Positions 35,560-61,318 of a stretch of 64,000 nucleotides of DNA are shown here, in pieces. Position numbers and translations under genes: made by a program. Source of the DNA: an uncultured Methanosarcinaceae archaeon (lineage in GTDB: Archaea > Halobacteriota > Methanosarcinia > Methanosarcinales > Methanosarcinaceae); NCBI GenBank assembly GCA_963847185.1, contig CAWJYV010000010.1:672001-736000 (forward strand), read 5' to 3'. Position 1 is the first letter of the stretch, and each line of letters opens with the position of its first letter. The notes below the pieces were generated by a model. It was not told the DNA's origin, searched no databases, and saw nothing but the letters and a program-made list of their open reading frames with translations.

Positions 35560-35720
35560 AAGAAGAAGCCCAAGACCACTGCATCCTTTCACTGTATCCC
35601 CCAACACAGTCTCTTCGACTATTATGCTCCCCCAAGCATTTAGTTCGAAGAAGGTTCAGTGATCCCAGGCGATTCTTTATTTGATAGATGATACCCCAAT
35701 TCTACTTCCCAACTCCAGGA
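35560..35720 (-). ncRNA. Candidate G-loop structured RNA, copy A
   Basis: Homologous to 61156-61318; TTTAAATA box upstream; hairpins with TTGGGGG loops. Confidence 0.55.
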
Positions 35721-36066
35721 TATACTAATAAGATAAAATATTTAAAATAAATTATATCAAAAATTGTTTTTAAGCAAAAAATAGTTGTAGTCATTTTATT
35801 TTAATGCAATTAAAATTTTTAAAATTGAGCCTATCTCAAAACTCAAGATCGCTTGAAAGGCTCCTTGACGAATTGTACAATTTCGCAGGTTTATTTATGG
35901 GAGTAGATGTGTCCTTATAGCTCAGGAATTTGGAGCTAATAACATCAGGCTTGTATTTTTTGTATTAAATATCCCGATGGTAACCTGATCAAGAAAAAAA
36001 GATTAAAGAGAAAAAATAAATTTATGCAGATTCAAGCCTTTTTAAGGTTAAATAATAAAAAATAAA

Positions 36067-37596
36067 GTAACTATTCAGGGTATATTTAACGGCGCTCCCC
36101 TGAGCGCCGCTATAATACTCTCTAAAACAGGCAACCCATTCTTCCTGATTGTAGAAATGTACGCTCTATTTCTGCAGAAAGCTTGCGCTCCCTGTGCTGT
36201 TCTGAAAGTTCCTGATATTTTCTGCTGTAGTTTCATCATCCTGATATCTCTTTCTGCTTGATTGTTCTCAAACGGAACTTTCAAATCTGTCAGGAATCTC
36301 ATGATCTTTTCTTTGTGTTCTATAAACCTATCCAGCAGATTCCTTGCTTTGGTTTTTGGATTCTTTCCACGTTTTCCTTTCTTTTCAGGATTTAGAAACT
36401 GTGGATTTTCTTCAATTCCTTTCATGATAATAGCATCGAACCTTTCTTCTAATGATTTAATTTGCTCAAAATCCAGTTCTTTGACTTGCTCTTTGCATTC
36501 GTCAGTATACTTTTTCATCTCAGTGAACAATTCATTCATTCCTTTAGTCCACTGCTGTTTATAGTTCTCTTCAATTCCAGTAAGTTCTCTCTGTAAATGA
36601 GCATTACAGAGAGCATGATCACAGTCATAAATGTTGTAAGGTTTCCATCCGTCGTGAACTGCTACTCCCTCAAACTCAGGAAGAATACCCATAGCATTTA
36701 TTGCCTCTGATCCTCTTTTTGAGTGAGGAAAATAACAGGTGTATTTATCATTAGAAGCTACATGAAGCCAGTGTCTTTTTCCTTCGATCTTCATACCAGT
36801 TTCATCAAAATGAACAACAGGAGAATTCATTAATTTCTTTCGAATAATGTTTTCAAAACACTCTAAATTCTGGGAACATTTTTTTTCTGCTCTAATTATC
36901 GTAGCAGGACAGATTTTTATTCCCATAATATCTTCAAAAAACTCAGAAATTCGTTCATAGGGGATAAAATGATGATTTTTACAGTAAACAGCTGAAGCTA
37001 AAATATTTAGACCATACTGAACTGGATATTTTACTGATTCAGGAAAAACAGCTTTATTTATTTTTCCACAGTAAGGACAGGTCTTAATCTGACTTTTGTG
37101 TTCTGTAACAATCAGATTCACAGGAGGAATATCAAAGACCTGTCTTTTCTTATAAGCTTCAACTTCAACATTCTCAAGAGTATGGCCACATTCTTTGCAG
37201 CAACTCAAAGAAAGTTCTATTACCTAATCAGGATCATCAACCATTTCAAGAGTTGTTCCTAGATGACCCTCTTGACCTCCAGGTTTCTTACCGCTCTTTT
37301 TACGGAGACTCTTGGGATTAGGTTTCTCCTTGACAAATAAATCAGTAGAAGGAGGTCTACTACTGTTTCTGCTATTTTGATTTAAGCGAGATTCTAAGGC
37401 TATTAATCTTTCAGTGAGTTCTTTTATTTGAGATTCTAAGCTCTCAGTGTAAGTTACAATAAATTCAGGATTTGAAGTACACAGTGATAGAATCTCTTCA
37501 CGCTTCATAATACAAAATAAGAAGTCATTTTAGATCCAATTTTTCCTCGGAAAGAGGAAAAATTGTGGAACCTTAAAAAGACTCCTGAATAGTTAC
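36067..37596 (-). mobile_element. IS66-family insertion sequence (single-transposase type)
   Basis: Perfect TIR GTAACTATTCAGG at both ends; 8-bp target duplication AAAATAAA. Confidence 0.93.
36075..37508 (-). CDS. IS66 transposase with in-frame TAG at 37224-37226 (possible pyrrolysine readthrough)
   Basis: Both ORF-track pieces share one frame; NSRNSSRPPSTD, GGQEGH, CxxC pairs, HFDETG, VHDG, LCNAH, NNQAERDIR. Confidence 0.8.
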
Positions 37597-38265
37597 AAAA
37601 TAAATTGATAATAGTTAATTAATTGTCAGATGATCACACTTTTATTCTGTTACCCAATTTAAAAGCTTGTCCTGTTTTATATTCACCCTTTATAAGTATA
37701 TTTTGATTTTGAAAAGAAAGGGCTAGAGTGGTGAAGCTCAAAAATGAAAGAAGTTATTCAATTTTTTTAACTAAATAAAATCATCTTAAGGCTTCAAAGT
37801 TAATTTAATTGGAAATAAGAGCTTACATATATTATCTAGATTATTTTTTTGGTTAAATAGTTAATTCCAGATTATTATTCATGATTTTAGTGCGATATTT
37901 TAAAAATCATAATTTGAAATTAAATAAAAGACTGAGCTTACTGTCTTAGCATCTGGTTTACTCAATTTTTCAAAAACTATTAATATTCAGAAGAAGTTAT
38001 TCTAGCGAATTTATATAATTCGTATTTATATTTCTAATTGTACTTACTGGCAATTGAAGTTAAACTGTTCTTCTCTAAATGAAAGCGTAACAAAGAAAGT
38101 AGCTTCTTAACACAACTGCCAGGAGTAAATTTAGGCTTGGGGAGATAATAAAACAATTAGGTTAGAATATTGAATTATGATCTTAGAAAGATCACTCTCC
38201 ACATGCAAAATGAGTATTAAATACTACGAATTACAGGCTATATTTAAACTATGGAGGTAAATATA

Positions 38266-38412
38266 ATGGTATGGAATTATGGTTGGAGAGATTGGGATAG
38301 GCGTAGAGGCTGGGGCTGGGCCGGATGTGGCGGCTGGGGCTGCGACGGCTGGGGCGGTCGTAGAGGTAGGTTCTGGCGTCATCGTGTAAACCGCTGGTGG
38401 GACTGGGACTGA
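38266..38412 (+). CDS. 48-aa Trp/Gly/Arg-rich small protein
   Basis: SD GGAGGT upstream; MVWNYGWRDWDRRRGWGWAGCGGWGCDGWGGRRGRFWRHRVNRWWDWD; GC-rich island in AT-rich flanks. Confidence 0.7.
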   Translation: MVWNYGWRDWDRRRGWGWAGCGGWGCDGWGGRRGRFWRHRVNRWWDWD

Positions 38413-38565
38413 GACTGTAAATAACCGTTGAACCTGTAGAATTAATTGGTATTAAAGGAAAAACATTGCAGTCATCTTTTCAATACATCGAAAAAGTCTG
38501 ACGATTGTCTTGAATCGATGGCTATTCATTTCCTATATTTTACCACTACTTCTCTTTTTTACAAT

Positions 38566-38669
38566 GGGCCTATCCCAAAACTTCATGTAATCTAATTATT
38601 GCTGCTAACATTACAATTCCCAAAAAGTAAATTTATAATTTAAATATAATATTATTTTTGAGATAGCTC
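38566..38669. mobile_element. MITE-like element
   Basis: GGGCCTATCCCAAAA ... TTTTGAGATAGCTC; AAT on both flanks; ends resemble 34761-34889. Confidence 0.5.
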
Positions 38670-38935
38670 AATATAATTTTTCAATTATATTGAAATTTCA
38701 AATTAGGCCAAATCTTTCATATCGGTTATAATATATATGGCCTTGTTAATATAAATTCACAGAAGATTAAGAGTAGTAGGGTTTCCTCTTAATCTATGGT
38801 TGGATCTCAGGCAGGGTTTGAGAATAGGGACTCAAAACTCTACCATTTACTTCAACTAAGCTTTTGAATCATTGGAAAATGTTGAAAGAATTGATTGTGG
38901 AAAATAAAGAAAGATGATACTGGGAAGTTACTAAC

Positions 38936-39046
38936 ATGAAAGAAGAGGTATATCTTACGTTTGATGATCATGAGGATTTCCGAAGGTCTCTTGAAGAAGT
39001 ACTGCAAGATAGAAAGGAATCACCTACAATGCCTACAAAAACTTGA
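38936..39046 (+). CDS. Possible 36-aa small protein
   Basis: MKEEVYLTFDDHEDFRRSLEEVLQDRKESPTMPTKT; downstream of TATA-like box and two hairpins. Confidence 0.35.
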   Translation: MKEEVYLTFDDHEDFRRSLEEVLQDRKESPTMPTKT

Positions 39047-39656
39047 AATTCTTGCAAAAACTTGAATTATGTTTTTCTGGCGGATGGCGTGAGCCTGCAG
39101 TTGTTTCAATTTCTCAGAGATCTCGGTTTGCGTTTTATTGCTTCTATAATATTCTTATTCAAGTCATAGACAAATCGGATCTTATCACAAAGATGACCAG
39201 AATAAGAAAATAGGTTGATGAAATAATAAGATCAGGTAACTAAATTGTAAAAAATATAATACCGTTTCATTTCTACTGAAGAGTTCCTACAGTGCTGGAT
39301 TTACAAAAAAGATATATTTCGAGTCAAGACTTTACTGAAGTAACTGATAAAAAGAGAAGAAGATAGTGTCCGACGATACCCGACAGGGCACAACTCTTTC
39401 TATTCATTTGTAAAAATTCACAGCCTGGCATAAAAGCAAAAGAGACCATTATCAAATAAGAATAACACCAATCTTTTACCATATGCCTTGTTTCATCGAT
39501 TGCCGTTACTCCTTCTAAAAACCAATATTGCGATGATTCATCCATCTGCAAGTCATTCTTTATCTTGAAACTTTGCTGTTTTATGCTCGCTTCTGATGGT
39601 TCTTCTATTGCCTCTTCATTTGATGCTCCGCCAGTTACTAATTTAGATGATTCCGT

Positions 39657-40619
39657 TTATACATCATTTTGAGTCTCGCCCTGCTCGAAAAAAAGACATC
39701 CCAGGTTAGACACATCTGCTCCATGATTGATTTCCTTGAGTGTGTAATTTCCAAATCTGTCACCAGTCTTGAATGTCCCAGCATTTGCATAGTCAATAAG
39801 CCAGAGACCATCTATCTGAGCAATGTCATCGGCTGCAACGAAGTAGATCTGGTTTATGTGAACTCTGAAAACAATAGTATCATCTTCTCCCTGTATGTTA
39901 TCGAGTTCAATTTTCCATGTGCTGCCACTACTATTAGAAGCAGAAATGATTTCGTCGTCGACATATTTTCCATTATGCCTGAATTCGAGCCAGACCTTCT
40001 GATCGTCGACATTTACCTGCCTGGCTTTGAGAGTGTAGCCTCCACCGAGGTCAAGAGTCTCGTCGGTTCTAATAGTATAGTTGTCGCAGTTATTAAGAAC
40101 TAATTTGGCAAGCTTGTTTACGTGGTTATTCCAGATCTTTTCACTATTCTCAAGCAAAGGAACATAGATCTCGCCAAATAATTCAATTGCCGGATACTGC
40201 TCATTAGACCAACTGCTACATCTATAATAGCCTCTGTCAACGTTAGAAGTGTAGAGTTTGCGCTCTAAAATAGTCGCTGTCTGTGTTCCTATTGATTCAG
40301 AAGATGCCGCAATTGCCTCATTGCCACTACCTGCTGCTGGGGTTACATGCGGTACTGCGGCGAATGCTGCTACTATTGAACAAAAAACAACAAAAAATTT
40401 TACACTTGTAGACAGTGAAAAATTTAGTCTTTTTTCCACATAGTCTATTGTTTGCTTCATTGTTACAATTGCTGCTAAAATAAAAAAAAGTCCAGAGATA
40501 TAATTTGTTACCAAAATTTCAGCTACACCAAAGAGTAAACAAATAGCTCCAATAACATAACGATCAATGATATTCAATGTAATTTTCCTCTGTTTCTTCA
40601 TTGTTCCATCCACATACAA
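39657..40619 (-). CDS. Membrane-anchored Methanosarcinales S-layer domain protein
   Basis: N-terminal TMs; LFGE.YVPL, KLAKLVL, ETLDLGGGYTLKARQV..D.QKVWLEF..NG.YVDDEII. Confidence 0.8.
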   Translation of the reverse strand: MYVDGTMKKQRKITLNIIDRYVIGAICLLFGVAEILVTNYISGLFFILAAIVTMKQTIDYVEKRLNFSLSTSVKFFVVFCSIVAAFAAVPHVTPAAGSGNEAIAASSESIGTQTATILERKLYTSNVDRGYYRCSSWSNEQYPAIELFGEIYVPLLENSEKIWNNHVNKLAKLVLNNCDNYTIRTDETLDLGGGYTLKARQVNVDDQKVWLEFRHNGKYVDDEIISASNSSGSTWKIELDNIQGEDDTIVFRVHINQIYFVAADDIAQIDGLWLIDYANAGTFKTGDRFGNYTLKEINHGADVSNLGCLFFEQGETQNDV

Positions 40620-40998
40620 CCCTCAATAAAAAATATATTTTTTCTTTTTATTACCAAGATTGTACATATATATTAATCGCTCGAATTTCGCATTAGTAAT
40701 TTTAAACTCAAAAAAGATGTATTCGACTAAAAATAGTCAGGCAATTGGATTCTGGCACCAGGGAATAATGGGAGTAAAGCTACGAATGATCTTGTTTTAT
40801 ACTCGAAAGTCCCCAAACTGTCTTCAGAATTATTCTTTAAATTCATTGAAAATTAACAAGATAGCTATCTTGCATTTATATCTGCCAGCATTCATTCAAA
40901 CATGTTTACAGTTGCCTTTTTTTGATTAGATAACGATTCTAATATATATTGGCAAACTATACTATTTATCGCACAAGATGTGCTCAGTTCAATTTCGT

Positions 40999-41075
40999 AA
41001 ACCCAAACCCAAACCCAAACCCAAACCCAAAACCCAACACAAACTCAAACCCAGGCATACCCCCTTGCCTGGGTT
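40999..41075 (+). repeat. (AAACCC)5 microsatellite followed by 10-bp hairpin
   Basis: Direct reading; stem AACCCAGGCA/TGCCTGGGTT with loop TACCCCCT. Confidence 0.8.
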
Positions 41076-41130
41076 AAATTAAACTTTATATAGAATCTTG
41101 AATCATAGACCCTTTGAGATTTCTGCATTC

Positions 41131-41565
41131 TTTTTTGGGACTTTTCAACTTCCTTTAGAGAAGTGAGCTTTTTTGAACCGGAGCAACGTAATTATCATCT
41201 TAAATGGAGCTTTTCCCGAACGCAGTGAGGCTATACCTTAAAGAATAAATTAAAAAAGCAATTTAAGTGTTCTATTTCCAAAAAAATGAAAAATTCGTTG
41301 GATTTTTCTTTCAAAAAGCCCTTTATTTTGCTTTTTCGCTTTTTCGGGCTGTCCCAAGCATTCACTCGGTGAAAACAAGGTTTTAAATGCCGACTAGTGT
41401 TTTTTGGGCAAGATCCATAACTTTATTTTTATTTTTGGGGGCAGCTCCATTAAATATTCCTCTAACAATCGTTTCCATAAGGTTCTCGCTCTCTTCCCTC
41501 CTTTTTCTTAGTTTTAATTCGAGTTCATCAGACAACCTCTGAGTTGCTCAACTTTTTCAGCGATG
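41131..41565. repeat. About 430-bp direct repeat, copy A (includes degraded hsdS 3' end)
   Basis: Aligns by eye with 42482-42914. Confidence 0.85.
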
Positions 41566-41716
41566 TTGTTTTATCACGCCTAAACGCGATTCGGGAGTAT
41601 GCTATTCTTTTCTGAAGTTTAACTTATTACTTCTAGGGTATAGCAGAGTCCTAATTACAGTAATTTTCCTCACTGGTGAAAACGTTCATATCTTATAGCA
41701 TCCTATAGGTTACTAT

Positions 41717-41953
41717 ATGGTAGCTTCGACAACAATTTGTCTTGACCCCAAAGTAAAAGAGATGCTCACAAGCCTAAAAACACATCCCCAGGAGTCTTAC
41801 AATTCAGTGGTAGAGAGGCTTATTAACATGGCAGTTGATTCTGAACCCCTGAGTGAAGAAACGATAAAAAGGATTGAAGAGGGACTTGAAGATATCAAAA
41901 AAGGAAGGTACTACACAGAAGAAGAAATTGCGGCCGAATTGAGGCTTGAGTAA
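41717..41953 (+). CDS. Antitoxin of RelE-type TA pair
   Basis: Small acidic protein, ESYNSVVERL, EEGLEDIKKGR; TAATG coupling to toxin. Confidence 0.8.
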   Translation: MVASTTICLDPKVKEMLTSLKTHPQESYNSVVERLINMAVDSEPLSEETIKRIEEGLEDIKKGRYYTEEEIAAELRLE

Positions 41954-42216
41954 TGTACTCTGTAATTTATACACAGGCGGCCCTTAAAGATCTACAAAAA
42001 CTTCCTCATGAAGTAGCTCAGAAGATTTACAACGCTGTTAAACGAATAAAAGATGACCCTTATTCTCATGTAAAAAAATTAAAAGCTTCACCTACAATTC
42101 CTTTTTATTCATTGAGGGTTGGCGAATACCGTGTTGTCATGACAATTGAAAGCCAGCAATTAGTTATTTTTATCATCGAAGTTGGACACAGAAGCAAGAT
42201 TTACAGGAAATATTGA
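41953..42216 (+). CDS. RelE/ParE family toxin
   Basis: A.KDLQKL, KKLK, YSLRVGEYRVV, VGHRSKIY. Confidence 0.9.
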   Translation: MYSVIYTQAALKDLQKLPHEVAQKIYNAVKRIKDDPYSHVKKLKASPTIPFYSLRVGEYRVVMTIESQQLVIFIIEVGHRSKIYRKY

Positions 42217-42481
42217 ATTTCCGAGTTCCGCCTCTTCCGAGTTCCGCTTCCCGAGTTCCGCTTCGGGAGCACGGGGTCTGTTTCCCTCGCTTCGCTCGCT
42301 CAAGCAGACTAACTTATTGCTTAGGATCCTGCCTAACTTTCTGAATTGCGCCTCGGGATCACAGGAAATCGGAGATTTTCTGGGAGTTGCGATGTAATCG
42401 TAACAGTACGCGGTACTTTTCCCTCGCTTCGCTCGCTCAAGAGGACGAATTTTTGGCGAAGAGTCATAACTTGAATTTTAT

Positions 42482-42914
42482 TTTTTTGGGGCAGCAACTT
42501 CCTTTAGAGAAGTGAGCTTTTTTGAACCGGAACAACGTTATTAGCGTCTTAAACGGAGCCTGTTCCGAACGTAGTGAGGCTATACCATAATAAATAAATT
42601 AAAAAAGCAATTTAAGAGTTCTATTTTCCAAAAAAATGGAAAATTCGTTGAATATGACATTCAAAATGCCTTTCATTTTGTTTTGTGCTTATTAGGACTG
42701 GCCCGAGCGTTCGCTCGGTGGAAAACAGATTCTAAACGCCGACTACTGTTTTTCGGGCGGGATCCATAACTTTATTTTTATTTTTGGGGGCAGCTCCATT
42801 AAATAATCCTCTAACAATCGTTTCCATAAGTACCTGACTGTTTTCTCTCTTTTCTTATTTTTAATTCGAGTTCATCACACAAATCCATGAACTTCTCAAC
42901 TTTTTCAACGATGC
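42482..42914. repeat. About 430-bp direct repeat, copy B
   Basis: Aligns by eye with 41131-41565. Confidence 0.85.
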
Positions 42915-45182: not shown

Positions 45183-45803
45183 CCTTTAAAATTATGTGAA
45201 TTTTTGAAGCATTAAGTGGTCAGAAACTCCTAACCTCAACTTTTTATCCGGAATTTTTCCGAAAATCTGAAATAAATTGTTTAGATTTCCCCATATACTC
45301 AATTGAGCCCTGTTCTCTATTGAGAAATAACGTAATCTGGTTTTTGTCCGCCGTTATTGTGCATAGAAGTACTCTAGAAACATTATCAGTTCCTCTATGT
45401 ATGGAAATTTTCCTGCATAGATAAATGTACTGATAAAAGGAAATAGAAAAATGAAAGCTACAAAAAGTGCTCAACCGCTGGTCATAGATGCTCCTCAAAA
45501 ATGATTTCTCCCTTCCCCCTAAATAGGTATGAAATCGTCAGTATAAAAAAGTTTCATTCATGTTTGAAATGCATAAATGATTTTTTGGAATGAATACAAA
45601 AAATAATGAATAAAGATCATTAAAACTCAAAACTATGATCTTTAACCAGTTAAACGCAAAATAACTTCCCAACATGCTGTACTTTCCTTGAACAGAAGAT
45701 CAGGATTATATCAAGTCCCTGAAATAAGGTCTATTAACTCTTAAATAGCTAAATTTTTAGTGCTTTATAATTTGATATTTCTGATTTAAAGGGGGAGTAA
45801 CAG

Positions 45804-48800
45804 ATGTGGGTAAGTAAATTAACCGTTCTTTTAGCGGTTGCTATCTTCCTTTTGACTGCTACCAACAGCCCTGCATCTGCCAGGGAGATTATAGTGGATG
45901 ATAAAGGTTCGAATGCAGGTTTCAGATCTATTCAGGAGGCAGTGGATAGTTCCTCTTCAGGAGATATAATTCTTGTTTATCCGGGCCTCTATAATGAGAG
46001 CGTGAATGTAAGTAAAGACAACTTGAGCATTCTTTCTGAGTCTGAAGAGCCTGAAGATACTCTTGTTAGGGATTTTAATGTAAGCGCGAATAATATTATT
46101 GTAAAAGGATTTACCATACAAGAAAATTTAGCTTTACAGGGTCTTAAGGGTGATCTCTGGTATGCTAAAATTGAAAACTGTACTGTTAAAAATAACATTT
46201 TGGAATCAGGTATTTATGCTGATGAATGTTACAATTCCACTATTGGGAAAAATGTAATTTTAAACTCAGGTATCTTTGTATCGGGGCCTGAAGCAGATTC
46301 TAATTTAACAATTTCTGATAATTTAATTGTTAACGGAGATATTGGAGTTCATCACGGTTCATATAATTGTGTCTTGCTTAATAATACACTTCTGAATGGA
46401 GGCATAGGAGTAGGTGAAGGTCCTGGCTGCAAAATTCTCGGCAATTATATTTCAAATGGGATAGATGACGGTTACGGAATTGTCTTTTCTGAATCTTCTT
46501 CTAGTGGGATAGAAAACAATACGATTGTAAATTGCACTAATGGTATCTTTTTAGTCCGGCTCACGGGGCCTAACACAGTTTATAATAATACTCTGATGTC
46601 AAATAATCGGGGGATTTATATTGGAGACTCAGGAGGAAACTCGCTTCTAAATAACACTATCTCAAAAAACAATATTGGGATACTATTAAACGGCATGACC
46701 ACGGATCAGGCGGGAGCTAATTCGCTTGTTAATAACACCATTTCAAACAACAATATAGGAATATTATTCGAAGGCGATTCTTCTGGTAATCTGGTAACCA
46801 ATAACAAAGTGGAGCTAAACAAGCAATATGGAGTATATATCAAACAGGTTAGCTATGAGATACCATATAATGGAACTGCACCATATAATGGAACTAACTG
46901 GTTCTACAATAATAGATTCAATAATACTGTTAACTTCTTTAATGATACAAGCAACTATACAAACGACCATTATACTGCAAGGGAAATAAATAATAGAAAT
47001 AATAGCACTGGAATAATTTCTGTTGCTTTGAACACTTCAAAAACTGCAGGCACTAACATCATAGGTGGGTCCTACCTTGGTGGAAATTTTTGGGCAAAGC
47101 CTGATGGCGCTGGTTTTTCCCAGATATGCGCGGACTCGGAGGGGGATGGAATTGGAGATTTACCCTATTATATAACCGGTAATGATATTGATTATCTTCC
47201 TCTTGTATCTGTATCCAGATCACAAGAAACAATAATTCCATTTGCAAACTTCAGCACCAACATCACACAGAATCTTGCCCCACTCGCTGTCCAGTTTACA
47301 GATCTTTCGCAGAATGCAGTTGCATGGAACTGGGATTTTGACAATAACGGAATATCCGATTCTGCAAGCCAAAATCCGGTTTATGTGTACATAGTCCCTG
47401 GAACCTACATTGTCAATTTAACAGCTAGCAACGGAAAAGAAACATCCTCAAAAACTCAGATAATAATTATGCAGGAAGCAACAGTTCCTCCCGTAGCAGA
47501 CTTCAGTTCCAATGTTACAGGCGGTCAGGTTCCTCTTTCAGTCCGGTTCATGGATATTTCCCAAAATGCAACATCAAGAGAATGGGATTTTAACAATGAC
47601 GGAAACTTTGACTCTACAGAAAGAACCCCGGTTTATGTATATACTTACCCTGGAAACCATACTGTCAACCTGACAGTAAGCAATACAAAAGGTACTGTTT
47701 CAAAATCATTTCCAATAACAGTATATCCTGCACAGCGTTTGGAGGGTGAACTCATCTTAACGGAATCTCAGATTACCACGAATGACTCGAATCAGGAGTA
47801 TCCTGCTATCTGCGGGGACAGAATAGTATGGCAGGATAGTCGTGATGGAAACTATACTTTATATCTATACGATATATCCACTTCTTCGGAAACTCCCATT
47901 GTCAGCGGCTATCCTCAATTTGACCCCGTTATCTATGAAGACAAGATTGTGTGGCAATCTGGAAATATATACCTATATAACCTCTCAACTTTTTCAAAAG
48001 ATCAGATCACTAATCAATCCGGAAGATATCCTGCTATTTACGATAATAAGATTGTCTGGGAGAGCTCTCATATCTACATGTACGATCTCTTGACTCTCAA
48101 AGAAACTCAAATTACTAACAACAATAACACATCATATCAAGAGTATCCAGCTATCTTTAGTAACAGGATTGTGTGGGGAGACTGGCGCAATAGAAACTGG
48201 GATATTTATATGTATGATCTCTCCACCCAAAAGGAATTACAGATAACTGCCAATGAATCAGATCAGGTAAGACCTGCTATATACGGAGACAGAATAGTAT
48301 GGGTAGATTCCCGTAATGGATATCCAAATATCTACATGTATAACCTCTCCAGTTCCAGAGAAACTCGGATAACCAGCAATAAATCAGGTCAATATTTGCC
48401 TGCTATTTACGGAGACAGAATTGTATGGGAAGATGGTCGCAGTGGCAATGGATCTGATATTTACATGTACGACTTCTCTACCTCCAAGGAAATCCAGATC
48501 ACTGCCAGTGGATCAGCATCCAATCCTGCTATCTACGATAACAGGATAGTATGGCAGGATCATCGGAATGGAAACTCGGATATCTACATGTGCACTATTT
48601 CAAGAGATGGACATAATTTGAAAACACCTGTTTCTGACTTCTTTGCGAATATAACATCAGGAAATGCACCCTTAAAAATATTATTCACTGACAACAGCAC
48701 TGGTGCACCGATTTTCTGGTTCTGGGATTTCGGAGATGGTATTAATTCAAAACACGCTTTAAACGCAACTCACACATTTACTGAACCTGGAAAGTATGAT

Positions 48801-52950: not shown

Positions 52951-54831
52951 TTACCTGGCACCGCCTCCGCCTCCACCGGCGCCTCCACCTACGCCGCCTA
53001 CTCCCCCGCCTCCGCTTCCTGAAGGGGCTGATGATGCATAGGCACTCCCAAAGCCGGATCCAAATTGAGCAAAACTATGGTGTATGAGATAGAAATTACT
53101 TCCCTGGAGCTGTTCAGCAGGCACGACAAGAGACATATTATGAAGGACTTCTTTTGCGACCCCCAGAGAAGTTGCATACACCAGATAAAAATCCCAGATC
53201 TTTATCGATTCAGGAGGGTGCTCTTCAAGAGCAGAAAAGTCTGTGAGATATTTTTTGAAATTGTCCCAGCGTTTGTAGTAAAGTCTTCCTTCAGGAGTCC
53301 AGCGCCCAAGTATCTTGTCGAAGATTCCTGAGAATACCAGCATAAATATCCCATACCCTAAGAAATAAGTGATTAAGATACTCATTTTTGAAGCCAGAAG
53401 GAGCTCGTCTGAAGGGAAATATGATGTGAATACAAATAAATAAACAAATGACACCAGTATTATTGTTAAAGAAAATATACCCATGTATGTATTTCCTGTG
53501 GATCTGAAGAGTTTCTCGAATGCGGCATGTGATTTGACTTTCTTATTCCATGCAGTGATAAATTCGTAGAAATCAGTACCTTTTCCAAGCTCTTTTTTCA
53601 GCTCATCCCAGGAGATTTTATCTTCGAAAGCATGTTTTTTTAATAAATTAAATACATCTTTTTCGAAATCATTCAGTTCGCGTATTTTTTCCATTTCTAT
53701 CGAAGAAGTTTTAGGGTCCTTAATTTCAATTATAATATCTTCAGATTCGGATTTTATAAGGCCTAATACACTGCTTTCTTCGGACTTTACAGTACGAAGA
53801 GAAATATAACCAAGATTAGCAAGGTCCATAACTGTTGCTGTAAAACCTTCTATTGTAGGGATACCTCCTTTTCCCCGCATGATAGCATTGACAACGGCAG
53901 GTCTGGAATCTGTAGGAGGTTCTCTCTCATATATTGCTTCATAATTTATTTTTGGCTCTCTTCCGTATTTGAAGTAAATAAAGAAGGGAAATGCCAGAGC
54001 TACTAGAGCAAACAATAATGTCAGATTATAAAGGCTCTTTAAGATGGAACCCTTCTTTTGATATTCATCTTCAATCGACTTTATCTGCTCAAGTCCCTCT
54101 TCATTATCTACCTGAACAATACTTGAATTGGGAGATTCTATTCTTGGAAAAACCGCTCGAATTTCGTACCATTGATTAGAGGGAATCTCGTTTGTCTCTA
54201 AACTGATAACACTCTTTTCTATATTCACCTGTTTTGTATAGCCAGTAGGGTGGAGCCAGTACTGAATTTCATTTTCGTTTTCTACTGGAAGGGTAATGTT
54301 TCCTTTTAAGCCTCCCAGGGGTTTTTCCCATTCTTCTCCCCAGAGTTTATAGTGAAATTCGGAAACATCCTTGTGGACTTTAACTGCGCCATAATGATCG
54401 TAAGAAACAAAAAAAGTCACTTTTTCAGGGGCAGGAGTTGGAAGCCCTCCTATTAACTCGTATCCTTCAGAAGTCGGTTTAACACTGAAGGTACATCCTT
54501 CTTCTGAACAATGTCCCTGGATATTCCGGATAGATTCCCCGGGAGCCACATTAAGTTTTCTGAAAACCTCGTGATAATCTCCGTCAAATGCATATGAAAT
54601 TGATTCCTCAACGTGAACTAACCCGCTGGGACTAATAATGATATTCGTTGTTGCTCCTTCCATCGCGTAGTCTTTTGCACTGGCTAAAGGTACCAGGCAG
54701 AGAAGAATAAGCAAAATAAGAGCTGTTTTCAAAACTTTAGAGCTAATCAAACCCGTAGAATTAATCAAATCCAGAGAACTAATATTTACTTCTCTGGCAG
54801 GTTCAGAAGAACCCTCTGAAAGCTTCAACAA
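52951..54831 (-). CDS. DUF2207 membrane protein
   Basis: EREPP...PAVV, ATVMDLA, W..FKKYL, WDFYLVYATSLGV, Gly-rich tail; adjacent to lemA. Confidence 0.88.
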   Translation of the reverse strand: MLKLSEGSSEPAREVNISSLDLINSTGLISSKVLKTALILLILLCLVPLASAKDYAMEGATTNIIISPSGLVHVEESISYAFDGDYHEVFRKLNVAPGESIRNIQGHCSEEGCTFSVKPTSEGYELIGGLPTPAPEKVTFFVSYDHYGAVKVHKDVSEFHYKLWGEEWEKPLGGLKGNITLPVENENEIQYWLHPTGYTKQVNIEKSVISLETNEIPSNQWYEIRAVFPRIESPNSSIVQVDNEEGLEQIKSIEDEYQKKGSILKSLYNLTLLFALVALAFPFFIYFKYGREPKINYEAIYEREPPTDSRPAVVNAIMRGKGGIPTIEGFTATVMDLANLGYISLRTVKSEESSVLGLIKSESEDIIIEIKDPKTSSIEMEKIRELNDFEKDVFNLLKKHAFEDKISWDELKKELGKGTDFYEFITAWNKKVKSHAAFEKLFRSTGNTYMGIFSLTIILVSFVYLFVFTSYFPSDELLLASKMSILITYFLGYGIFMLVFSGIFDKILGRWTPEGRLYYKRWDNFKKYLTDFSALEEHPPESIKIWDFYLVYATSLGVAKEVLHNMSLVVPAEQLQGSNFYLIHHSFAQFGSGFGSAYASSAPSGSGGGGVGGVGGGAGGGGGGAR

Positions 54832-55096
54832 AATTCCTCCAACTCTTAATTATTCTCTGAATATTAATATTTTGCCAGAGTTTACCTGGTTAATATGAAA
54901 AAACAAAAAAAGTGGAGAAAAAAGGAATTTCTTACAAGCTCTATTTAATGCTGCTCTTAAGGAAAAGATCCGTTTTAAGTAGTCTATTTCCGGACGTGTA
55001 AGTTATGTCAGCCTAGAAATCTTTCAAGCCCTTTTGGCTGCTGATTTTTTGCATTTTGGTTCCGGTTTTTTCCGGAAGCTAAAACTATTTATTTGC

Positions 55097-57001
55097 TTAA
55101 TCGGTGTCTCCTCCACTCCCCCTTCCGCCTCCATCATCTATGCTGCCTGCTCCATCTTCATGAACGGGTGAAGAATAGACACCCTCAAAATCATAGTCAG
55201 CATAGTTATAATTATAAATTATAGAAAATAAATGGATCTCTTTTAACTGTTCAGGCGGAACAATCGCAGACATGTTCTCAAGGACTTTTTTTACAACTCC
55301 CAGAGAAGTTGCATAAACCAGATAAGAATTCCAGTTCTTTACTGATTCAGGAGGTTGATCTTTAAGAGCAGAGAGATCAGTTAGATATTTTTTGAAATTA
55401 TCCCATCTTTTATAGTAAATACTTCCTTCAGGGGTCCAGTGTCCGAATATCGTTATGATCATTCCCGAGTACTCCATCATAACGAACCCGAAAATCCCGA
55501 TTAAAGCAGTCAGTACATTAACCCTCGACGCTAGAGGAAACTCGGTTGGAGGGAAATATTTAGTAATCGCAATATAATAGATAATTGCAGCTACTAATAT
55601 GAACCTGGAAAACCAATTCATATACGTGATCCCTATTGATTGAAAGAGTTTACCAATCTCAATATGGGATTTAACTTTCTTATTCCAGGAAGTAATAAAT
55701 TGATAAAAATCGGTTCCTGTCCCGAGCTCTTTTTTAAACTTGCTCCAGGAAATCTCTTTATTTTCAGAAGCATGTTCTTTCAATAAATAGAGCGCGTCTT
55801 TTTCGAAATCTTCCAGTTCTGATAAGCTTCCTTCAGATTTAGAGTATATCTCATTGTTTATAAGTTGTATTGCAAAGTCCCTGGACTCGGATTTTGGAAT
55901 ACTTGAGGTGAATTTTTGGATGCATAACGAAGATTTCGGAATGCTTGATGAATTTCCTTCTTCGGGTATTAAATTGCTCAGAGAAATATAGCCGCGGTTA
56001 GCAAGATCCATAACTGTTGCGAAAAATCCTTCTATCTGAGGAATACCCATCCTTCCTTTCATAATAGCGTTGACTACGGCAGGTTTGGAATCTGTGGGAG
56101 GCTTTCTTTCATATATTTCTTCGTAACTTCCGAATGTTTCTTGATAATCTATTTTTGGCTCTCTTCCGTAAAGCAGGTATATGACGAAAGGAAAAGCCAG
56201 GATAAGAAGTAAAAAGTAAACCGTAAATCTGTAAATATTTTTTAAATACAAATCTTTCTGCTGATATTCTTTCTCAATAGCTAATATTTCCTCAAGACCC
56301 TCTTTATCATCCACTTGAACAAAACTGGAATTGGGATACATGATTCTTGGAAAAATCACTCTTATTTTATACCATTGAGATGAGGGAATTTTTTTTGCCT
56401 TAAAGTTGATAACATTATTTTCAATATTGAACTCCTGTGTATACACAGGAGGGTGAATCCAATACCGAATTTCATTTTCATTGTTCACAGGAAAAGCAAT
56501 CCTTCCGCTTAAGTTTTCCACAGGCTTTTCCCATTCTCCACCCCACAGCTTGTAGTGGAATTCAGAGGTATCGCTGTAGACCTTGACCGCACCATGAAGA
56601 TCGTAAGAAGTAAAAAGCGTCAATTTTTTAGGGCTGGGCTTTGGAAGTTCACCTACTAACCTGTATCCTTCAGGAGTCCGTTCGACTCTAAATTCACAGG
56701 CTTCGTCCGAACAATGTCCCTTGATGTTATAAATGGATTGTCCGGGCAGCGCCTTGAGTTCTCTATGAACGTCAATGTACTCTCCGTCAAATGCATATAA
56801 GATTGCCTCCTTAATATGAACTACACCATTAGGGTCAACAGTTATATTTGTTGTAGCTCCCTCCAGTGAGTACCTCGCACTGGCTGAAGGCACAGAATAA
56901 AGAACAAGCAAAATAAGCAGAATAAGAATAACTGTTTTCAATATCATTGAATCGATACTTGCTTCTCCTACAGGCTCAGGAGAACCATTTGAGAACCTCA
57001 A
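55097..57001 (-). CDS. DUF2207 membrane protein (tandem paralog)
   Basis: Same motifs; SD GGGAGG before TTG start. Confidence 0.88.
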   Translation of the reverse strand: MRFSNGSPEPVGEASIDSMILKTVILILLILLVLYSVPSASARYSLEGATTNITVDPNGVVHIKEAILYAFDGEYIDVHRELKALPGQSIYNIKGHCSDEACEFRVERTPEGYRLVGELPKPSPKKLTLFTSYDLHGAVKVYSDTSEFHYKLWGGEWEKPVENLSGRIAFPVNNENEIRYWIHPPVYTQEFNIENNVINFKAKKIPSSQWYKIRVIFPRIMYPNSSFVQVDDKEGLEEILAIEKEYQQKDLYLKNIYRFTVYFLLLILAFPFVIYLLYGREPKIDYQETFGSYEEIYERKPPTDSKPAVVNAIMKGRMGIPQIEGFFATVMDLANRGYISLSNLIPEEGNSSSIPKSSLCIQKFTSSIPKSESRDFAIQLINNEIYSKSEGSLSELEDFEKDALYLLKEHASENKEISWSKFKKELGTGTDFYQFITSWNKKVKSHIEIGKLFQSIGITYMNWFSRFILVAAIIYYIAITKYFPPTEFPLASRVNVLTALIGIFGFVMMEYSGMIITIFGHWTPEGSIYYKRWDNFKKYLTDLSALKDQPPESVKNWNSYLVYATSLGVVKKVLENMSAIVPPEQLKEIHLFSIIYNYNYADYDFEGVYSSPVHEDGAGSIDDGGGRGSGGDTD

Positions 57002-57023
57002 TCAAGTTTCCTCCCACTCCATA

Positions 57024-57295
57024 TATTTCTGAATACGAGTATCCAGATTTTTCGTCCCTGTACTAGTTCTAAATACGAGTATCCAGGATTCCCTTCCCTG
57101 AACTATTTATGAATACGAGTATCCAGAATTCACTTCCCTGAACTATTTCTGGTACTGGTATCCAGAATTCTCTTCCCTGAACTATTTCTGGTACTGGTAT
57201 CCAGAATTCTCTTCCCTGAACTATTTCTGGATACTGTGTATCCAGAATTCTCCTCCCCACACTATTTCCGAATACTATATTCTCCAGAATCCACT
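57024..57295. repeat. Tandem array of about 7 palindromic 39-41 bp units
   Basis: Unit consensus TATTTCTG(G/A)ATAC-N2-3-GTATCCAGAATTCNCTTCCCTGAAC. Confidence 0.88.
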
Positions 57296-57490
57296 TAATA
57301 CTTTGTTCCAACTGGCTTGCAGACGCTTATTTATTTTAAATTTGGCAATTGCTTTTGATCCGGGGCTGTTTTACCTGCATTTTGAGGCATTTATCTATAA
57401 ATATGCAAATATATTGAGCATGCTGAAGCATCTGTCTAAAAATCGAGAACAATCGAAAAGAAGTTAAAGAGAAGATCTGATAGTTAATTA

Positions 57491-59698
57491 ATGCAAATAG
57501 AAAAACATATTTTTGGGGTTTTTTTTGTGTGGCAAGTAAATAAGACCGAAATAATGTTATTTTCATTATTATCTGCATTTTTTGTATTAATGGCAGGGTC
57601 CGGAATAAGTGCTGCAGCCGAGTTTATCGTACATGACGGTGAATCGATACAGTTAGTTGTGGATAATGCGACGTCAGATGATACAATAATCGTAGAACCT
57701 GGTACGTATAATGAGAGTGTTACTGTCCAGTCACCGATTACAATAATGTCTGAATCTGGAAATCCGAAGGATACGATAATTCAGGGTTCCGGCTTCAGCC
57801 TTTACGCAGGCAACGTAGCTATTAAAGGCTTCACCTTAAAAGGTGACGGTGAGTCGACTGGAGTCTTTCTATCTGATTCGACTATTAGTTGCATAATTGA
57901 AAACAACAATATACTGGATTACGATACCGGTATTAGCACATCAATATATTGTTCAGGTACTGCAGTTAACAATAATGAAATTTCAAATTGTGGCAAAGGC
58001 GTAGAAATAGGGGAATCCTGGGATAACCTTGTTAGTAATAATGAAATCTCAAATTGTGATATCGGCGTTATCATTAATGATCTGGCATCAGTTGACATTA
58101 ATAGTAATACGATTACTGATAATGGTGTCGGAGTCTCTATTACAGGTGACTGTAATGTGTCCATTGTAGGCAATATTATAAGTTTCAATAGTGAATGCGG
58201 TCTTTATAATAACGCATACGGTAGTAACACAATCTACAACAACCTTTTCAACAATACAAAAAACGTGGTTTTTGATGAGTTTCACCAGGCGCCTGATAAC
58301 TGGAATACGACAAAAAACAAAGATATGAACATTATCGGCGGGCCCTACATTGCAGGGAACTACTGGGCAGAGCCTGAAGGTGTGGGTTTTAGTCAGCTTA
58401 ATTATGATACTAATAGTGATGGTGTAGCCAATGAGCCTTATACTATCGATGGAGAAGATACCGACTTCACGCCTCTGGTAACCCTGGAGAAACAAGCAGA
58501 ACCCGTACTTCCTGTTGCAAACTTCAAGGCAAATACGAGTCAGGGACCTGCTCCTCTTTCAGTTTCATTCACTGATCTTTCCAAAAATGCAGTTTCATGG
58601 AGCTGGGACTTTGAAAACGATGGAAAAATTGACTCTACAGCCAAAAACGGAGTTCACGTGTATACAGCTCCTGGATCTTATAAAGTCAACCATACTGTAA
58701 AAAGCGAAGCTGGAACAGTCTCAAAACTGATTACGATAAATGTTACGGAAGCTGTTAATAATAAGTCAGGAAATAATGGGACTTCAAGCACCGGGATTAC
58801 TAAAAATAATGGGAATAGCTGGGATAATGCAACCGACGGTGGAAACAATAGTATAGATAATGGAAATAACAGTATAAATGATGTAAACAGTAGCGTAGGC
58901 AATGGAAATAGCAGTATAAGTAATGGAAATGGCAGCGTAGACAGTAGCATTAATGGAGATAATGGAAACTCTGGCGAGAGTGGAAGCAGCGGAAGTGATG
59001 GCGGAAGCAGTGGTGGAGGTGCAGGTGGTTCTCCTGAACCTGCAGAAAATATAGAAGTAAAAGAACTTTCACAGGCGTTTATCACAAACGGAGAAGAGAC
59101 CAAGTTTGATTTCTCACAAAATGCGACCTGCGTTGTATATGTCAGTTTTGATGCAAAGAAGACTTTGGGAAAAATAACAACCACTGCCGAGATGCTGAAA
59201 GGAAAATCAGCTCTGGTTTCGGAACTGCCTGAAGGTGAGGTCTACAAGTCCTTTAATGTCTGGGTTGGAAACGGAGGAATTGCGACCTCTAGTAATATGG
59301 AAAACCTGACAATGTGCTTCAAGGTTGAGAAGTCCTGGCTGCAGGATAAAAGTATAGATCCGATATCAATCACCCTTAACTGGTATAATGGGAAAAAATG
59401 GGAACAGTTCCCGGTTACTATAACAGAGGAAGATGCAAATTATCTGTACTTCACAGCCAATGTCTCTGGGTACTCTTCCTTTGCAATAACAGGCTCAATA
59501 GCAGGTTCAGCAACAGATTCAGTAACTGGAAAGGTAAAAAGCTATCTTGAGCAACAAGAATCTTCTGAAGAGGAAAACAGCTTGCTGAGCACCAGGTCGG
59601 CAAGACTAACCAGTGAAACTGACAAGAGTGCTCCAGGTTTTGAAATAATTTTCGGAATTGTCTGTCTGCTCGGTAATTTCATTTACAGGAGAAAATAA
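57491..59698 (+). CDS. Cell-surface protein: NosD, PKD, PGF-pre-PGF domain, PGF-CTERM
   Basis: GGAGGSPEPA.N.EVKELSQ, KKTLGK.TTT.EMLK, SSFAITG, APGF-TM-RRK; true start may be 57553. Confidence 0.92.
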   Translation: MQIEKHIFGVFFVWQVNKTEIMLFSLLSAFFVLMAGSGISAAAEFIVHDGESIQLVVDNATSDDTIIVEPGTYNESVTVQSPITIMSESGNPKDTIIQGSGFSLYAGNVAIKGFTLKGDGESTGVFLSDSTISCIIENNNILDYDTGISTSIYCSGTAVNNNEISNCGKGVEIGESWDNLVSNNEISNCDIGVIINDLASVDINSNTITDNGVGVSITGDCNVSIVGNIISFNSECGLYNNAYGSNTIYNNLFNNTKNVVFDEFHQAPDNWNTTKNKDMNIIGGPYIAGNYWAEPEGVGFSQLNYDTNSDGVANEPYTIDGEDTDFTPLVTLEKQAEPVLPVANFKANTSQGPAPLSVSFTDLSKNAVSWSWDFENDGKIDSTAKNGVHVYTAPGSYKVNHTVKSEAGTVSKLITINVTEAVNNKSGNNGTSSTGITKNNGNSWDNATDGGNNSIDNGNNSINDVNSSVGNGNSSISNGNGSVDSSINGDNGNSGESGSSGSDGGSSGGGAGGSPEPAENIEVKELSQAFITNGEETKFDFSQNATCVVYVSFDAKKTLGKITTTAEMLKGKSALVSELPEGEVYKSFNVWVGNGGIATSSNMENLTMCFKVEKSWLQDKSIDPISITLNWYNGKKWEQFPVTITEEDANYLYFTANVSGYSSFAITGSIAGSATDSVTGKVKSYLEQQESSEEENSLLSTRSARLTSETDKSAPGFEIIFGIVCLLGNFIYRRK

Positions 59699-59798
59699 TG
59701 AGGTGAAGGAATCCTCCTTCATCTTTAACTTTTTTAAGTAAAAAAGGAAAAATTAATATTTCTGCTGTTATTCCCTAATTGATCGGAAGATTACCCTC

Positions 59799-60938
59799 TC
59801 AATTCACAGGCTTTTTGAGACGAGCCATGAAACCTTCGGAATCTGTATTGTGATATTTCTTTTTTCCCAGCAGGAAGGGAAAATAATTATTGATCAGGAA
59901 AATCACAGGTATCAGGCAGAGAAGGTTCAGTACCGTTAGGCTCAGAGCAAAACCAGTATTATAATAGAAGTATTCAGTATCTACACCTAAAACGATAACT
60001 ACAAGCTTTGTAAAGACATCTTTTAGAGGGAAATGAAGTGCAAGTATAGTCAGACTGTTTCTTCCATAATACTCAAGCACCTTTGAACTTCCTATTTTCT
60101 TGGAAAGGTAGACAAAACTAAATATTCCTGCGAAAGCCAACAGGTAAAAAGAAAAGAAGCCTCCATATTGCAAAACGTTCATGTTAACTTTGTTATCTGT
60201 TGGAAATTTCAGCAGGTATCCGAGATACAGCAGGCTCAAAAGAATTGCAATAGCAGTTAAATACTTCTCAACTCTGGAGAACTTCTCTATAAATCCTGAA
60301 TTAAATTTCAGACTAAAACGTGCTCCTAACTCTTTTTCTGGTTCTATGGCTTTTCTAAATAGATTTCCAGCTCCATAAAAGACTATTGCAGCCAGAGCAA
60401 CATCTACATTCCAGGGTATTCTGAAAGGCACATAAACCGAATAAAGGTATCCTATCACTCCGGCTATAGCAAGCCAGAATACAAGTTTTTTCGGCTCTCT
60501 ATAGTACTTCTTTATAAGTCCATAAAAGAGAAGTTCTGTCACAAAAAGACACGTCAAGAACCAGAGAGGTGGATTATAAGAAACTGCAGGACCAAATGCG
60601 ACAAGAATATGAGAAGTTCCATGAAGTATGCTGTTTTCAAAAAACTCAATATTTATGACTCCTGGCTGGAATGCCGTATCCAGCAAAAAGTAAAACAAGC
60701 CAGTGATTACTGCAAAACAGAAATAAGGAACTATAAGAGACCTGAATCTTCCCTTTACAAAATTTGCAGATGATTCTGCGTACTTCCCGAAATCGAACAG
60801 AAATCCTGAAATAAAAAAGAATAGCGGCATGTGAAACGAAAAGATGTAAGTGTCAAGCGCTACAGGTAAGCTATGGTGTGCAAACACCACAAGCATGATC
60901 CCAATCCCTTTTAAGGCATCAATCCATTGAAGTCTCAT
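59799..60938 (-). CDS. Acyltransferase family 3 membrane protein
   Basis: WIDALKGIGI.LVV..H, FHMPLFFFISG, LWFLTCLF. Confidence 0.92.
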   Translation of the reverse strand: MRLQWIDALKGIGIMLVVFAHHSLPVALDTYIFSFHMPLFFFISGFLFDFGKYAESSANFVKGRFRSLIVPYFCFAVITGLFYFLLDTAFQPGVINIEFFENSILHGTSHILVAFGPAVSYNPPLWFLTCLFVTELLFYGLIKKYYREPKKLVFWLAIAGVIGYLYSVYVPFRIPWNVDVALAAIVFYGAGNLFRKAIEPEKELGARFSLKFNSGFIEKFSRVEKYLTAIAILLSLLYLGYLLKFPTDNKVNMNVLQYGGFFSFYLLAFAGIFSFVYLSKKIGSSKVLEYYGRNSLTILALHFPLKDVFTKLVVIVLGVDTEYFYYNTGFALSLTVLNLLCLIPVIFLINNYFPFLLGKKKYHNTDSEGFMARLKKPVN

Positions 60939-61155
60939 ATTAACCTAAAAGATTAACAGTGTTTATATAATAAAAATGTTTGTTTGCTATTTTGGGTTTA
61001 TGACATTCTTTTAGATTTGCATAAATATGACTCCAAATTAAACTTGCATAAATATGACTCTATGTTTGATTTGAAATTTTTAATTTGAAAATATTATTTG
61101 TTTGAAAACAATTTTTTGTATAATTAATTTAAAATAATTTATCTTATTAGTATAG

Positions 61156-61318
61156 TCCGGAGTTGGGAAGTAGAATTGGGGGTATCGTCTACCACAAAAA
61201 GAATCGCCTGGAAGCCACAAATCCTTTTTCGAACAATTACGCTTGGGGGAGCATAAATTCGAAGAGGCTGTATTGGGGGATACAGTGAACGGATGAAGTG
61301 CTTCTGGGCTTCTTCTTA
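61156..61318 (+). ncRNA. Candidate G-loop structured RNA, copy B
   Basis: Homologous to reverse complement of 35560-35720; TTTAAAATA upstream. Confidence 0.55.

Follow-up and report, generated by a model that had tools for sequence, protein, structure and literature searches.

A multi-copy family of structured, G-loop small RNAs in Methanosarcina with a likeness to ribosome-binding sites

A 64,000-nucleotide stretch of DNA from an uncultured Methanosarcinaceae archaeon (contig CAWJYV010000010.1, positions 672,001 to 736,000; the whole stretch is called the window here) contains two dispersed segments of similar sequence. Each lies upstream of a region encoding a MEDS-domain sensor kinase, and each can fold into hairpins whose loops display runs of G. 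Are these segments leaders of the kinase genes, messengers of small proteins, mobile repeats, or genes of a regulatory RNA in their own right? The evidence makes it very probable that copy A (minus strand) and copy B (plus strand) are genes of a small RNA (sRNA) of about 165 nucleotides (nt) that does not code for protein and is transcribed independently. This sRNA belongs to a multi-copy ("sibling") family that is confined to Methanosarcina and one sister genus. The parts of the two genes are as follows.

35558..35726, minus strand: copy A of the G-loop sRNA, covariance-model match of 184.6 bits, predicted 5' end near 35719
35727..35825, minus strand: promoter and upstream region of copy A, conserved across species, promoter profile E 1.2e-10
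35523-35519, minus strand: likely terminator of copy A, a run of five T (T5) in the sequence
61149..61319, plus strand: copy B of the G-loop sRNA, covariance-model match of 168.6 bits, closing stem ending at 61318
near 61156, plus strand: predicted 5' end of copy B, 3 nt before GGAG at 61159, placed from the mapped 5' end of Methanosarcina mazei spRNA12
61128-61136, plus strand: TATA-like TTTAAAATA of copy B, about 24 nt before the predicted start
61060..61148, plus strand: promoter and upstream region of copy B, conserved across species, promoter profile E 2.8e-13
61310..61409, plus strand: tandem repeat (TTCTTCTTA) x11.1, a 9-nt unit with 96% matches, extending the 3' tail of copy B

A DNA alignment of 35560-35750 (minus strand) with 61128-61318 (plus strand) shows 84% identity over the full 191 nt (E 3.8e-51). 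The homology runs from the AT-rich promoter to GGGCTTCTTCTTA, and the 5' words GGAGTTGGGAAGTAGAATTGGGG(G)TATC are present in both copies. Hairpin 1 reads GCTTGGGGGAGC in both, with the loop TTGGGGGA at 35635-35628 in copy A and 61243-61250 in copy B. Hairpin 2, CTGT(G/A)TTGGGGGATACAG, carries the same loop at 35604-35597 and 61273-61280. A TCGA-containing stem encloses hairpin 1, and the closing stem (GCCUGG.../...GGGC) differs in sequence between the copies but retains its pairing. These features (the homology, the hairpins with the same loop, the TCGA stem and the divergent but paired closing stem) had been pointed out in a preliminary description of the window, and alignment and folding confirmed them. 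Single-sequence folding gave a z-score of -3.61 for copy A, equaled by 0 of 200 shuffles, and -1.68 for copy B, equaled by 15 of 200. By itself, this prediction is only moderately convincing. In copy B, the 9-nt repeat grows from the conserved CUUCUUCUUA tail, and the first T5 run follows about 100 nt further, at about 61417. Given this late T5 run, the predicted transcript of copy B may be longer than those of its relatives.

How large is the family? Searching the window's own genome at the DNA level gave 10 places. A covariance model built from nine own-genome copies (MAFFT alignment) gave 13 matches there, nine at 112.6-187.2 bits and four at 40.8-43.9 bits. The count of two copies in the preliminary description is thus right for the window and too low for the genome. 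Three matches stand in a row at C10:298330-299499. Two copies are decayed: at C6:48529-48622 (minus strand) the promoter is joined straight to the last part of the closing stem by an internal deletion, and C10:298330-298477 (minus strand) is a 3' half without promoter. Within the genus Methanosarcina, 55 of 58 other species genomes contain 1-21 copies each, and the covariance-model search found no match in the remaining three, which are 92-99% complete. In all, the genus yields roughly 450 hits. A sample of 121 Methanosarcinaceae genomes gave matches in 18 of 19 genomes of the own genus and in 6 of 6 of one sister genus. The model matched none of 95 genomes across 14 other genera of the same family and none of 77 across five other families of the order. 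Tandem arrays with a spacing of about 450-600 nt are frequent, and up to six or seven copies follow one another in the sister genus.

Rfam 15 assigns no family at its gathering score to either window locus, and its E-value mode returned just two chance-level matches, mir-483 at 18 bits and CrcZ at 14.9 bits. Six further copies had no Rfam match at all.

The fold is supported by covariation. For this analysis, 82 matches (E <= 1e-5, from 48 sources totalling 296,463 bases) were aligned to the covariance model. Standard pairs fill 92.6% of the cells in the paired columns, compared with 40-51% after a shift of the 3' partners by 1-3 columns. Compensatory changes on both sides are seen in 31 of the 38 base pairs, and none of 500 column shuffles reaches any observed pairing measure. 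This alignment is fitted to the model; the nine-copy MAFFT alignment gives the same fold de novo, and compensatory changes are already present in 11 of the 38 predicted pairs among the nine own-genome copies.

In the consensus fold, a single-stranded 5' arm precedes a three-way junction. The long closing stem pairs AAGAA..GCCUGG... with ...GGGCUUCUU, the inner stem CUUCGA/UCGAAG surrounds hairpin 1, and hairpin 2 lies directly 3' of it. Both hairpin loops display UUGGGGGA. The loops are conserved while the stems vary: the exact loop is kept in 49 of the 82 copies at loop 1 and in 51 at loop 2, and GGGG in 65 and 76, respectively. Two more G-runs, GGAGUUGGGAA and UGGGG, are held in the 5' arm, where 42 of 82 copies have AGUUGGG. 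Together, the four G-runs might form a G-quadruplex, a reading made uncertain by the length of the spacers between them.

The family also has the outline of a transcription unit. About 95 base pairs upstream of the RNA are conserved across species in the 81 copies with full flanks, and a TATA-like TTTAA(A/T)ATA is located about 24-27 nt before the start that is predicted from spRNA12. When a profile of this promoter was run on the own genome, 13 places preceded model matches or a degenerate copy, and one preceded a different gene. At the other end, 48 of 82 copies carry at least five consecutive T between -10 and +19 nt relative to the model 3' end; 14 copies, with copy B among them, have no such run within 100 nt of it. 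On the predicted ends, the family therefore shows both a TATA-like box at about -25 and an oligo-T terminator, as expected of an independent archaeal unit. A bacterial promoter and terminator scan, which is uninformative for an archaeon, gave 7 promoter-like sites against 7.3 expected and no terminators.

Four of 10 matching public sequencing runs were examined, three of RNA and one of unstated kind. In all four, the matches are assembled contigs 85-95% alike to copy A; those of the three RNA studies cover just 35559-35698, with neither the promoter nor the nearby insertion sequence (IS) element. Only the run of unstated kind (X7) extends past the RNA body at copy A. At this level of identity the contigs stem from relatives, and they give a weak hint of expression that carries no information on transcript starts, ends or strand, nor on habitat.

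More direct data come from M. mazei. The names spRNA12 and spRNA13 reportedly go back to Jager et al. 2009. In the supplements of PMC11456600, four entries of M. mazei Go1 appear to be family members: spRNA12, spRNA13, MM_RS05485 and sORF_294. The printed sequence of spRNA12 (1230920-1231028, minus strand) begins TGT-GGAGTTGGG (that is, TGT-GGAGTTGGGAAGTGAGA) and contains ATGCTTGGGGGAGCAT. By-eye comparison of the printed sequences finds the 5' block GGAGTTGGGAAGTGAGA and the blocks ATGCTTGGGGGAGCAT, TTCGAAGAGACTGTATTGGGGGATACAG and CTCTGGGCTTCTTCTT in common between the catalogue entries and the family. By their listed positions (PMC11456600), three of the entries stand in tandem at 1.2309-1.2323 megabases, an arrangement also seen in other species. 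The authors call MM_RS05485 mis-annotated, with coverage that "would fit an sRNA", and sORF_294 (3977401-3977559), which looks like a canonical copy, is tagged "wrong annotation" (PMC11456600).

Another M. mazei RNA, sRNA154, which we take to be induced by nitrogen limitation, helps to read the two growth conditions in these data. Its reads per kilobase per million (rpkm) are 55314/85982 in condition A and 2421/500 in condition B (PMC11456600), and condition A is read as nitrogen limitation because sRNA154 is far higher there. For spRNA12, the same tables give 22323/19364 rpkm in condition A versus 3829/9254 in B (log2 fold change 2.02, adjusted p ~1e-3) and a translation efficiency of 0.18/0.17. 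Mean efficiencies are 4.49 for coding sequences (CDS), 1.13 for sRNAs and 0.19 for tRNAs (PMC11456600). By these supplements, and with condition A read in this way, the catalogued M. mazei relatives are transcribed and abundant, rise about 4-fold when nitrogen is limiting and have a low translation efficiency. The possibility that the family is silent DNA, raised in the preliminary description, is answered by this transcription in M. mazei. Its idea of a multi-copy structured sRNA family was well founded, with 13 own-genome matches, presence in 55 of 58 species, covariation and a promoter of its own. Whether the family had already been characterized has a divided answer: spRNA12 and spRNA13 are catalogued, and no characterization was found. 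Word and sequence-string searches of the literature, whose coverage did not extend to Jager et al. 2009 and Prasse et al. 2015, returned no description or characterization of the family, including spRNA12 and spRNA13. The preprint 10.1101/2025.10.28.685009 treats other spRNAs. The members are catalogued yet uncharacterized, and until now they were known solely as scattered catalogue entries.

The labels spRNA12, spRNA13 and sORF_294 suggest another view, in which the RNA is the mRNA of a small protein or has a dual function. The M. mazei supplements list "yes" in the ribosome profiling (Ribo-seq) curation, DeepRibo small open reading frames (ORFs) on spRNA12, and a proteomics entry for one 26-aa ORF (PMC11456600). 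A frame of the type ..YAWGS..LGD.. is open in 27 of 82 copies. Against this, the longest ORFs of the 82 copies begin in scattered alignment columns, use differing start codons and measure 14-66 codons, so that start, frame and length are all unconserved. The distance from loop to loop is 0, 1 or 2 modulo 3 in 29, 37 and 16 copies, which places the loops mutually out of frame in 53 of the 82, and an ORF in the frame of the M. mazei small ORF spans both loops in just 27. No reading frame is conserved among the 82 copies, and substitutions keep base pairs, not codons. The translation efficiency of 0.17-0.18 is also far from the CDS mean of 4.49, and two members are flagged by the authors as a "wrong annotation" or as fitting an sRNA (PMC11456600). 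We consider a small-protein messenger highly improbable. The two marks of a structured non-coding RNA, compensatory pair changes and the lack of a conserved reading frame, are both present.

Could the copies instead be functionless remnants of a mobile element or repeat, similar to miniature inverted-repeat transposable elements (MITEs)? The family is multi-copy, some copies lie near IS elements, and the copies at C10:298330-298477 and C6:48529-48622 are degenerate or truncated. However, no inverted pairs of at least 11 nt, as terminal inverted repeats would form, were found around either window copy. The borders of the duplicated unit coincide with promoter and terminator. G-loop loci are syntenic between species, with the same flanking genes (polyprenyl synthetase 5, LysE 3, TPR proteins 3), and strong compensatory changes and conserved loops are seen throughout. 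A MITE-like origin, which the preliminary description had named as something that would undo its proposal, is scarcely credible.

A real mobile element lies next to copy A, together with a second sRNA family, called X here.

38760..38856, plus strand: X sRNA copy of about 97 nt, from a second multi-copy family, divergent partner of copy A
36075..37508, minus strand: IS66-family transposase, two ORFs across an in-frame TAG, Pfam DDE_Tnp_IS66 E 3.8e-67
37127-37226: PYLIS_5 element of the IS66 transposase, Rfam 118 bits

The in-frame TAG and PYLIS_5 suggest that the transposase is probably read with pyrrolysine. The IS66 element sits between the copy A promoter and the X gene and splits a divergent pair, leaving X about 3 kilobases (kb) from copy A. 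X has 10 matches in the own genome (among them C1:182271-182456 and C10:298902-299070), with hairpins of its own and the GGG motifs UAGGGUUU, GGGUUGGAU, GGUAGGGA and AUAGGGAC. Its M. mazei relatives sRNA145, sRNA146 and spRNA41 are annotated as sRNAs on the same strand. For 13 of the 81 G-loop copies, an X gene lies upstream on the opposite strand within 450 nt, at gaps of 117-224 nt; a single gap of 425 nt arises because one of these X genes is counted again for an adjoining partial copy. X and the G-loop RNA form a divergent sRNA gene pair, and X also occurs alone.

What, then, of the kinase genes? The neighbours of the window copies are listed below.

62125..63999 and past the window end, plus strand: MEDS-PAS sensor kinase gene, Pfam MEDS E 2.6e-41 plus PAS domains
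34255..34619, minus strand: broken MEDS frame, a MEDS match with one TAG and one TAA inside
31200-34298, minus strand: CheB/CheR/PAS ORF of 1032 aa by Pfam, directly downstream of the broken MEDS frame

The region 31200-34619 (minus strand) looks like a decayed MEDS fusion protein. The distance is 806 nt from the end of copy B (61319) to the co-oriented, intact MEDS-PAS ORF at 62125, and 939 nt from the end of copy A (35558) to the ATG at 34619. The position 0.8-0.95 kb upstream of a MEDS gene, claimed in the preliminary description, is therefore accurate for both window copies, with the frame behind copy A broken, and does not extend to the family. The own genome has 9 strong copies and 8 MEDS matches; 4 of each are neighbours at distances of up to 4.5 kb, which is above chance. 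For the 49 copies of five complete relatives, a MEDS match is found within 5 kb in 5 cases (about 1.1 would be expected), and three of the five genomes contribute no case. Among the 29 best loci of other species, taken with 1.5 kb per side, MEDS occurs at one; polyprenyl synthetase (5), LysE (3) and TPR proteins (3) are the recurring flanks.

These neighbourhoods bear on a cis-acting role, in which the RNA would be a leader or neighbour regulator of the downstream gene, whether a MEDS kinase, a 46-aa zinc-ribbon protein or MtaA/MtbA-like methyltransferases. The MEDS proximity of four of the nine strong own-genome copies fits such a role, and two relatives likewise have a co-oriented copy upstream of a MEDS gene at a distance of about 1 kb. 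In the sister genus, arrays of 5-7 copies precede a CitMHS transporter gene and one or two genes of the URO-D family (MtaA/MtbA-like), and the own-genome copy at C8:251341-251510 likewise lies upstream of a CitMHS gene. A further candidate is the zinc-ribbon ORF (MKHLKICPKC...YCNICRYWTK.GTARLDSIMIYG), which has four cysteines and follows 10 of 82 G-loop copies after 50-90 nt; in 6 of the 10, the interval lacks a T5 run. Its representatives in the own genome are the following.

L012:7422-7559 = C10:298421-298558, minus strand: zinc-ribbon ORF, conserved translation
C10:83285-83416, C8:746278-746409 and C7:394851-394973: zinc-ribbon paralogs

No Pfam or NCBIfam family matches this ORF. One paralog stands behind a promoter of the family type without the RNA. 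The ORF could be co-transcribed with the G-loop RNA or functionally tied to it.

Several points count against a cis-acting role. The neighbours are diverse, and a constant position upstream of MEDS genes, as a MEDS leader should have, was not found (4 of 9 copies here, 5 of 49 in the five complete genomes, 1 of the 29 best loci). A T-run follows right after the fold in 48 of 82 copies, and arrays of six or seven copies cannot all be leaders. In the window, the 0.8-0.9 kb between RNA and MEDS start contain T-runs and TATA-like boxes, so the MEDS gene at 62125 is probably a separate transcript. In our view, the MEDS link reflects loose proximity that is partly inherited, not the function of the RNA, and a cis-acting leader is improbable.

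If the RNA acts in trans, its loops are the obvious place to look. A crude gene map of the own genome (3149 ORFs, 72% coverage) was used to count words at -20 to -1 before predicted starts. GGGGG occurs 111 times and GGAGG 211 times, compared with 6 for CCCCC and 12 for CCTCC. The positions of GGGGG peak at -15 to -9, the same as those of GGAGG. TTGGGGG precedes 17 genes, several of them as TTGGGGGAT(A), the exact word of loop 2, and an A follows the five G in 64% of 70 start-upstream sites versus 47% genome-wide. The 16S rRNA genes end in GGAUCACCUCCU. Pairing of the loop with this 3' end is calculated at -8.4 kcal/mol, compared with -10.0 for bare GGAGG and -19.1 for the full 10-nt complement. 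Within the window, GGGGG is found at 45789-45793 before the ATG at 45804, and also before the start at 16391, both as reported in the preliminary description. GGGGG is a genuine Shine-Dalgarno (SD) variant in this genome, about half as frequent as GGAGG. The earlier suggestion that the loops are SD mimics agrees with this distribution.

Since GGGGG is a real SD variant and the loops copy it, we read the family RNA as a trans-acting SD-mimic decoy. This reading is tentative; we hold it to be quite possible and somewhat short of probable. The G-runs would offer up to four look-alikes of a ribosome-binding site per RNA. The decoy could attract a protein that binds such sites or a small RNA of the CCUCC type, or it could engage 16S rRNA directly at its 3' end, and titration of this partner would tune translation initiation. 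With one promoter type shared by the many copies, the dose might be set by a common regulator. The M. mazei members go up roughly 4-fold under nitrogen limitation. The neighbouring MEDS kinase genes would be bystanders, not the target. A more far-reaching version, which we think rather doubtful, is an archaeal form of the CsrB/RsmZ principle without CsrA. Here, 4-21 co-regulated genes per genome would titrate the anti-SD tail of the 30S subunit or a regulator that binds ribosome-binding sites, shifting translation between GGGGG-type and GGAGG-type mRNAs, for example in nitrogen limitation. Such a system could also include the 46-aa zinc-ribbon protein and the divergently encoded, G-rich X sRNA.

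A number of observations weigh against the decoy. The folding predictions allow U-A and U-G pairs between the outer residues of the loops, leaving a GGGG tetraloop that would hinder loop pairing. The decoy partner is a candidate only, and a 5-base-pair G-run match is short, so the likeness to ribosome sites could be coincidental. The efficiency of 0.18 listed for spRNA12 in the M. mazei tables is tRNA-like and provides no indication that the RNA is strongly bound to translating ribosomes, although binding to 30S alone is invisible in such data. A search for CsrA (PF02599) in the 99.8%-complete genome found none, while control genomes matched. Transcription in the window's own organism is a prediction. 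At least one copy may also be translated, as a 26-aa ORF of spRNA12 is marked as seen by proteomics in the supplements of PMC11456600.

A specific partner, sRNA41, was also considered.

10502-10616, plus strand: sRNA41 (RF02905), Rfam 70.2 bits, full length, with CCUCC, CUCCU and CCUCA words

Its complementarity to the G-loop RNAs is like that of shuffled sequences, which is a further point against the decoy. In crude, full-length duplex energies that ignore internal structure, z was +0.17 for copy B and +0.77 for copy A, and 163 and 227 of 300 dinucleotide shuffles were as good or better. sRNA41 was rejected as a pairing partner on these grounds.

The same loops allow the main rival to the decoy mechanism, namely that the RNAs are base-pairing siblings. 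The G-rich loops and the 5' arm would then be seeds for C/U-rich RNA stretches, as a mirror image of LhrC, RsaE and sX13. The motifs are conserved, repeated and exposed, the single-stranded 5' end is conserved, tandem arrays hold multiple copies, and G-U wobble would broaden the target range. The target counts point the other way: TCCCCCAA is absent from positions -20 to -1 of predicted starts and found 5 times in the wider span of -200 to +30, compared with 11 and 25 for the reverse word. Five of six exact complements of the 5' motif are antisense strands of the family's own genes. No exact complement of the loops or 5' motif is enriched near predicted starts in the own genome; these counts use the crude ORF map and exact complements, with wobble or intra-coding targets unscored. 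Seed pairing is a serious alternative that we consider rather unlikely.

The fold and the loop sequence of this family are conserved across a genus of major methane producers, and the family is abundant in the model species. Recognition as one family corrects the annotation of members that now stand as unrelated small-protein RNAs or mis-called ORFs, and it provides a new entry for Rfam-style models. The GGGGG word, as a common ribosome-site variant, matters for gene and start-codon calling in the genus. To our knowledge, the mechanism has been established for very few regulatory RNAs of archaea. If the decoy reading is true, mimicry of ribosome-binding sites would control translation in archaea lacking CsrA and Hfq-type systems.

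How does the family compare with known systems? The preliminary description had invoked CsrB-like sponge logic. Like the CsrB and RsmZ sponges, the family has repeated short G-rich motifs that mimic ribosome-binding sites in loops or single strands, and the sponges too are abundant and often present in several copies. The family motif is GGGGG(A), whereas theirs is A(N)GGA; the family RNA has four sites compared with up to about 20; and its host is an archaeon. The many GGA motifs in loops that mark CsrB and RsmZ are not found: the loops read UUGGGGGA, GGGGGA contains a GGA, and there are just two loop sites and two single-stranded G-runs. With a CsrA gene and an Rfam match both absent, membership in the CsrB type fails.

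Among archaeal sRNAs, sRNA41 reportedly acts at ribosome-binding sites (Buddeweg et al. 2018 are said to have described this). It is likewise genus-restricted, but it is single-copy here, with CCUCC-type motifs and a different fold family. The M. mazei catalogue, as far as its supplements list these RNAs, holds separate entries for small-protein RNAs or a mis-annotated ORF, and not one structured non-coding family. The literature searched describes no multi-copy "sibling" sRNA family in methanogens. In bacteria, LhrC1-5, RsaE and sX13 are sibling sRNAs whose anti-SD-like C/U-rich loops bind the ribosome sites of mRNAs. The G-loop family resembles them in its near-identical, partly tandem genes, in a motif repeated in loops and in one presumed regulator. 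Its polarity is reversed, with loops that are G-rich and SD-like.

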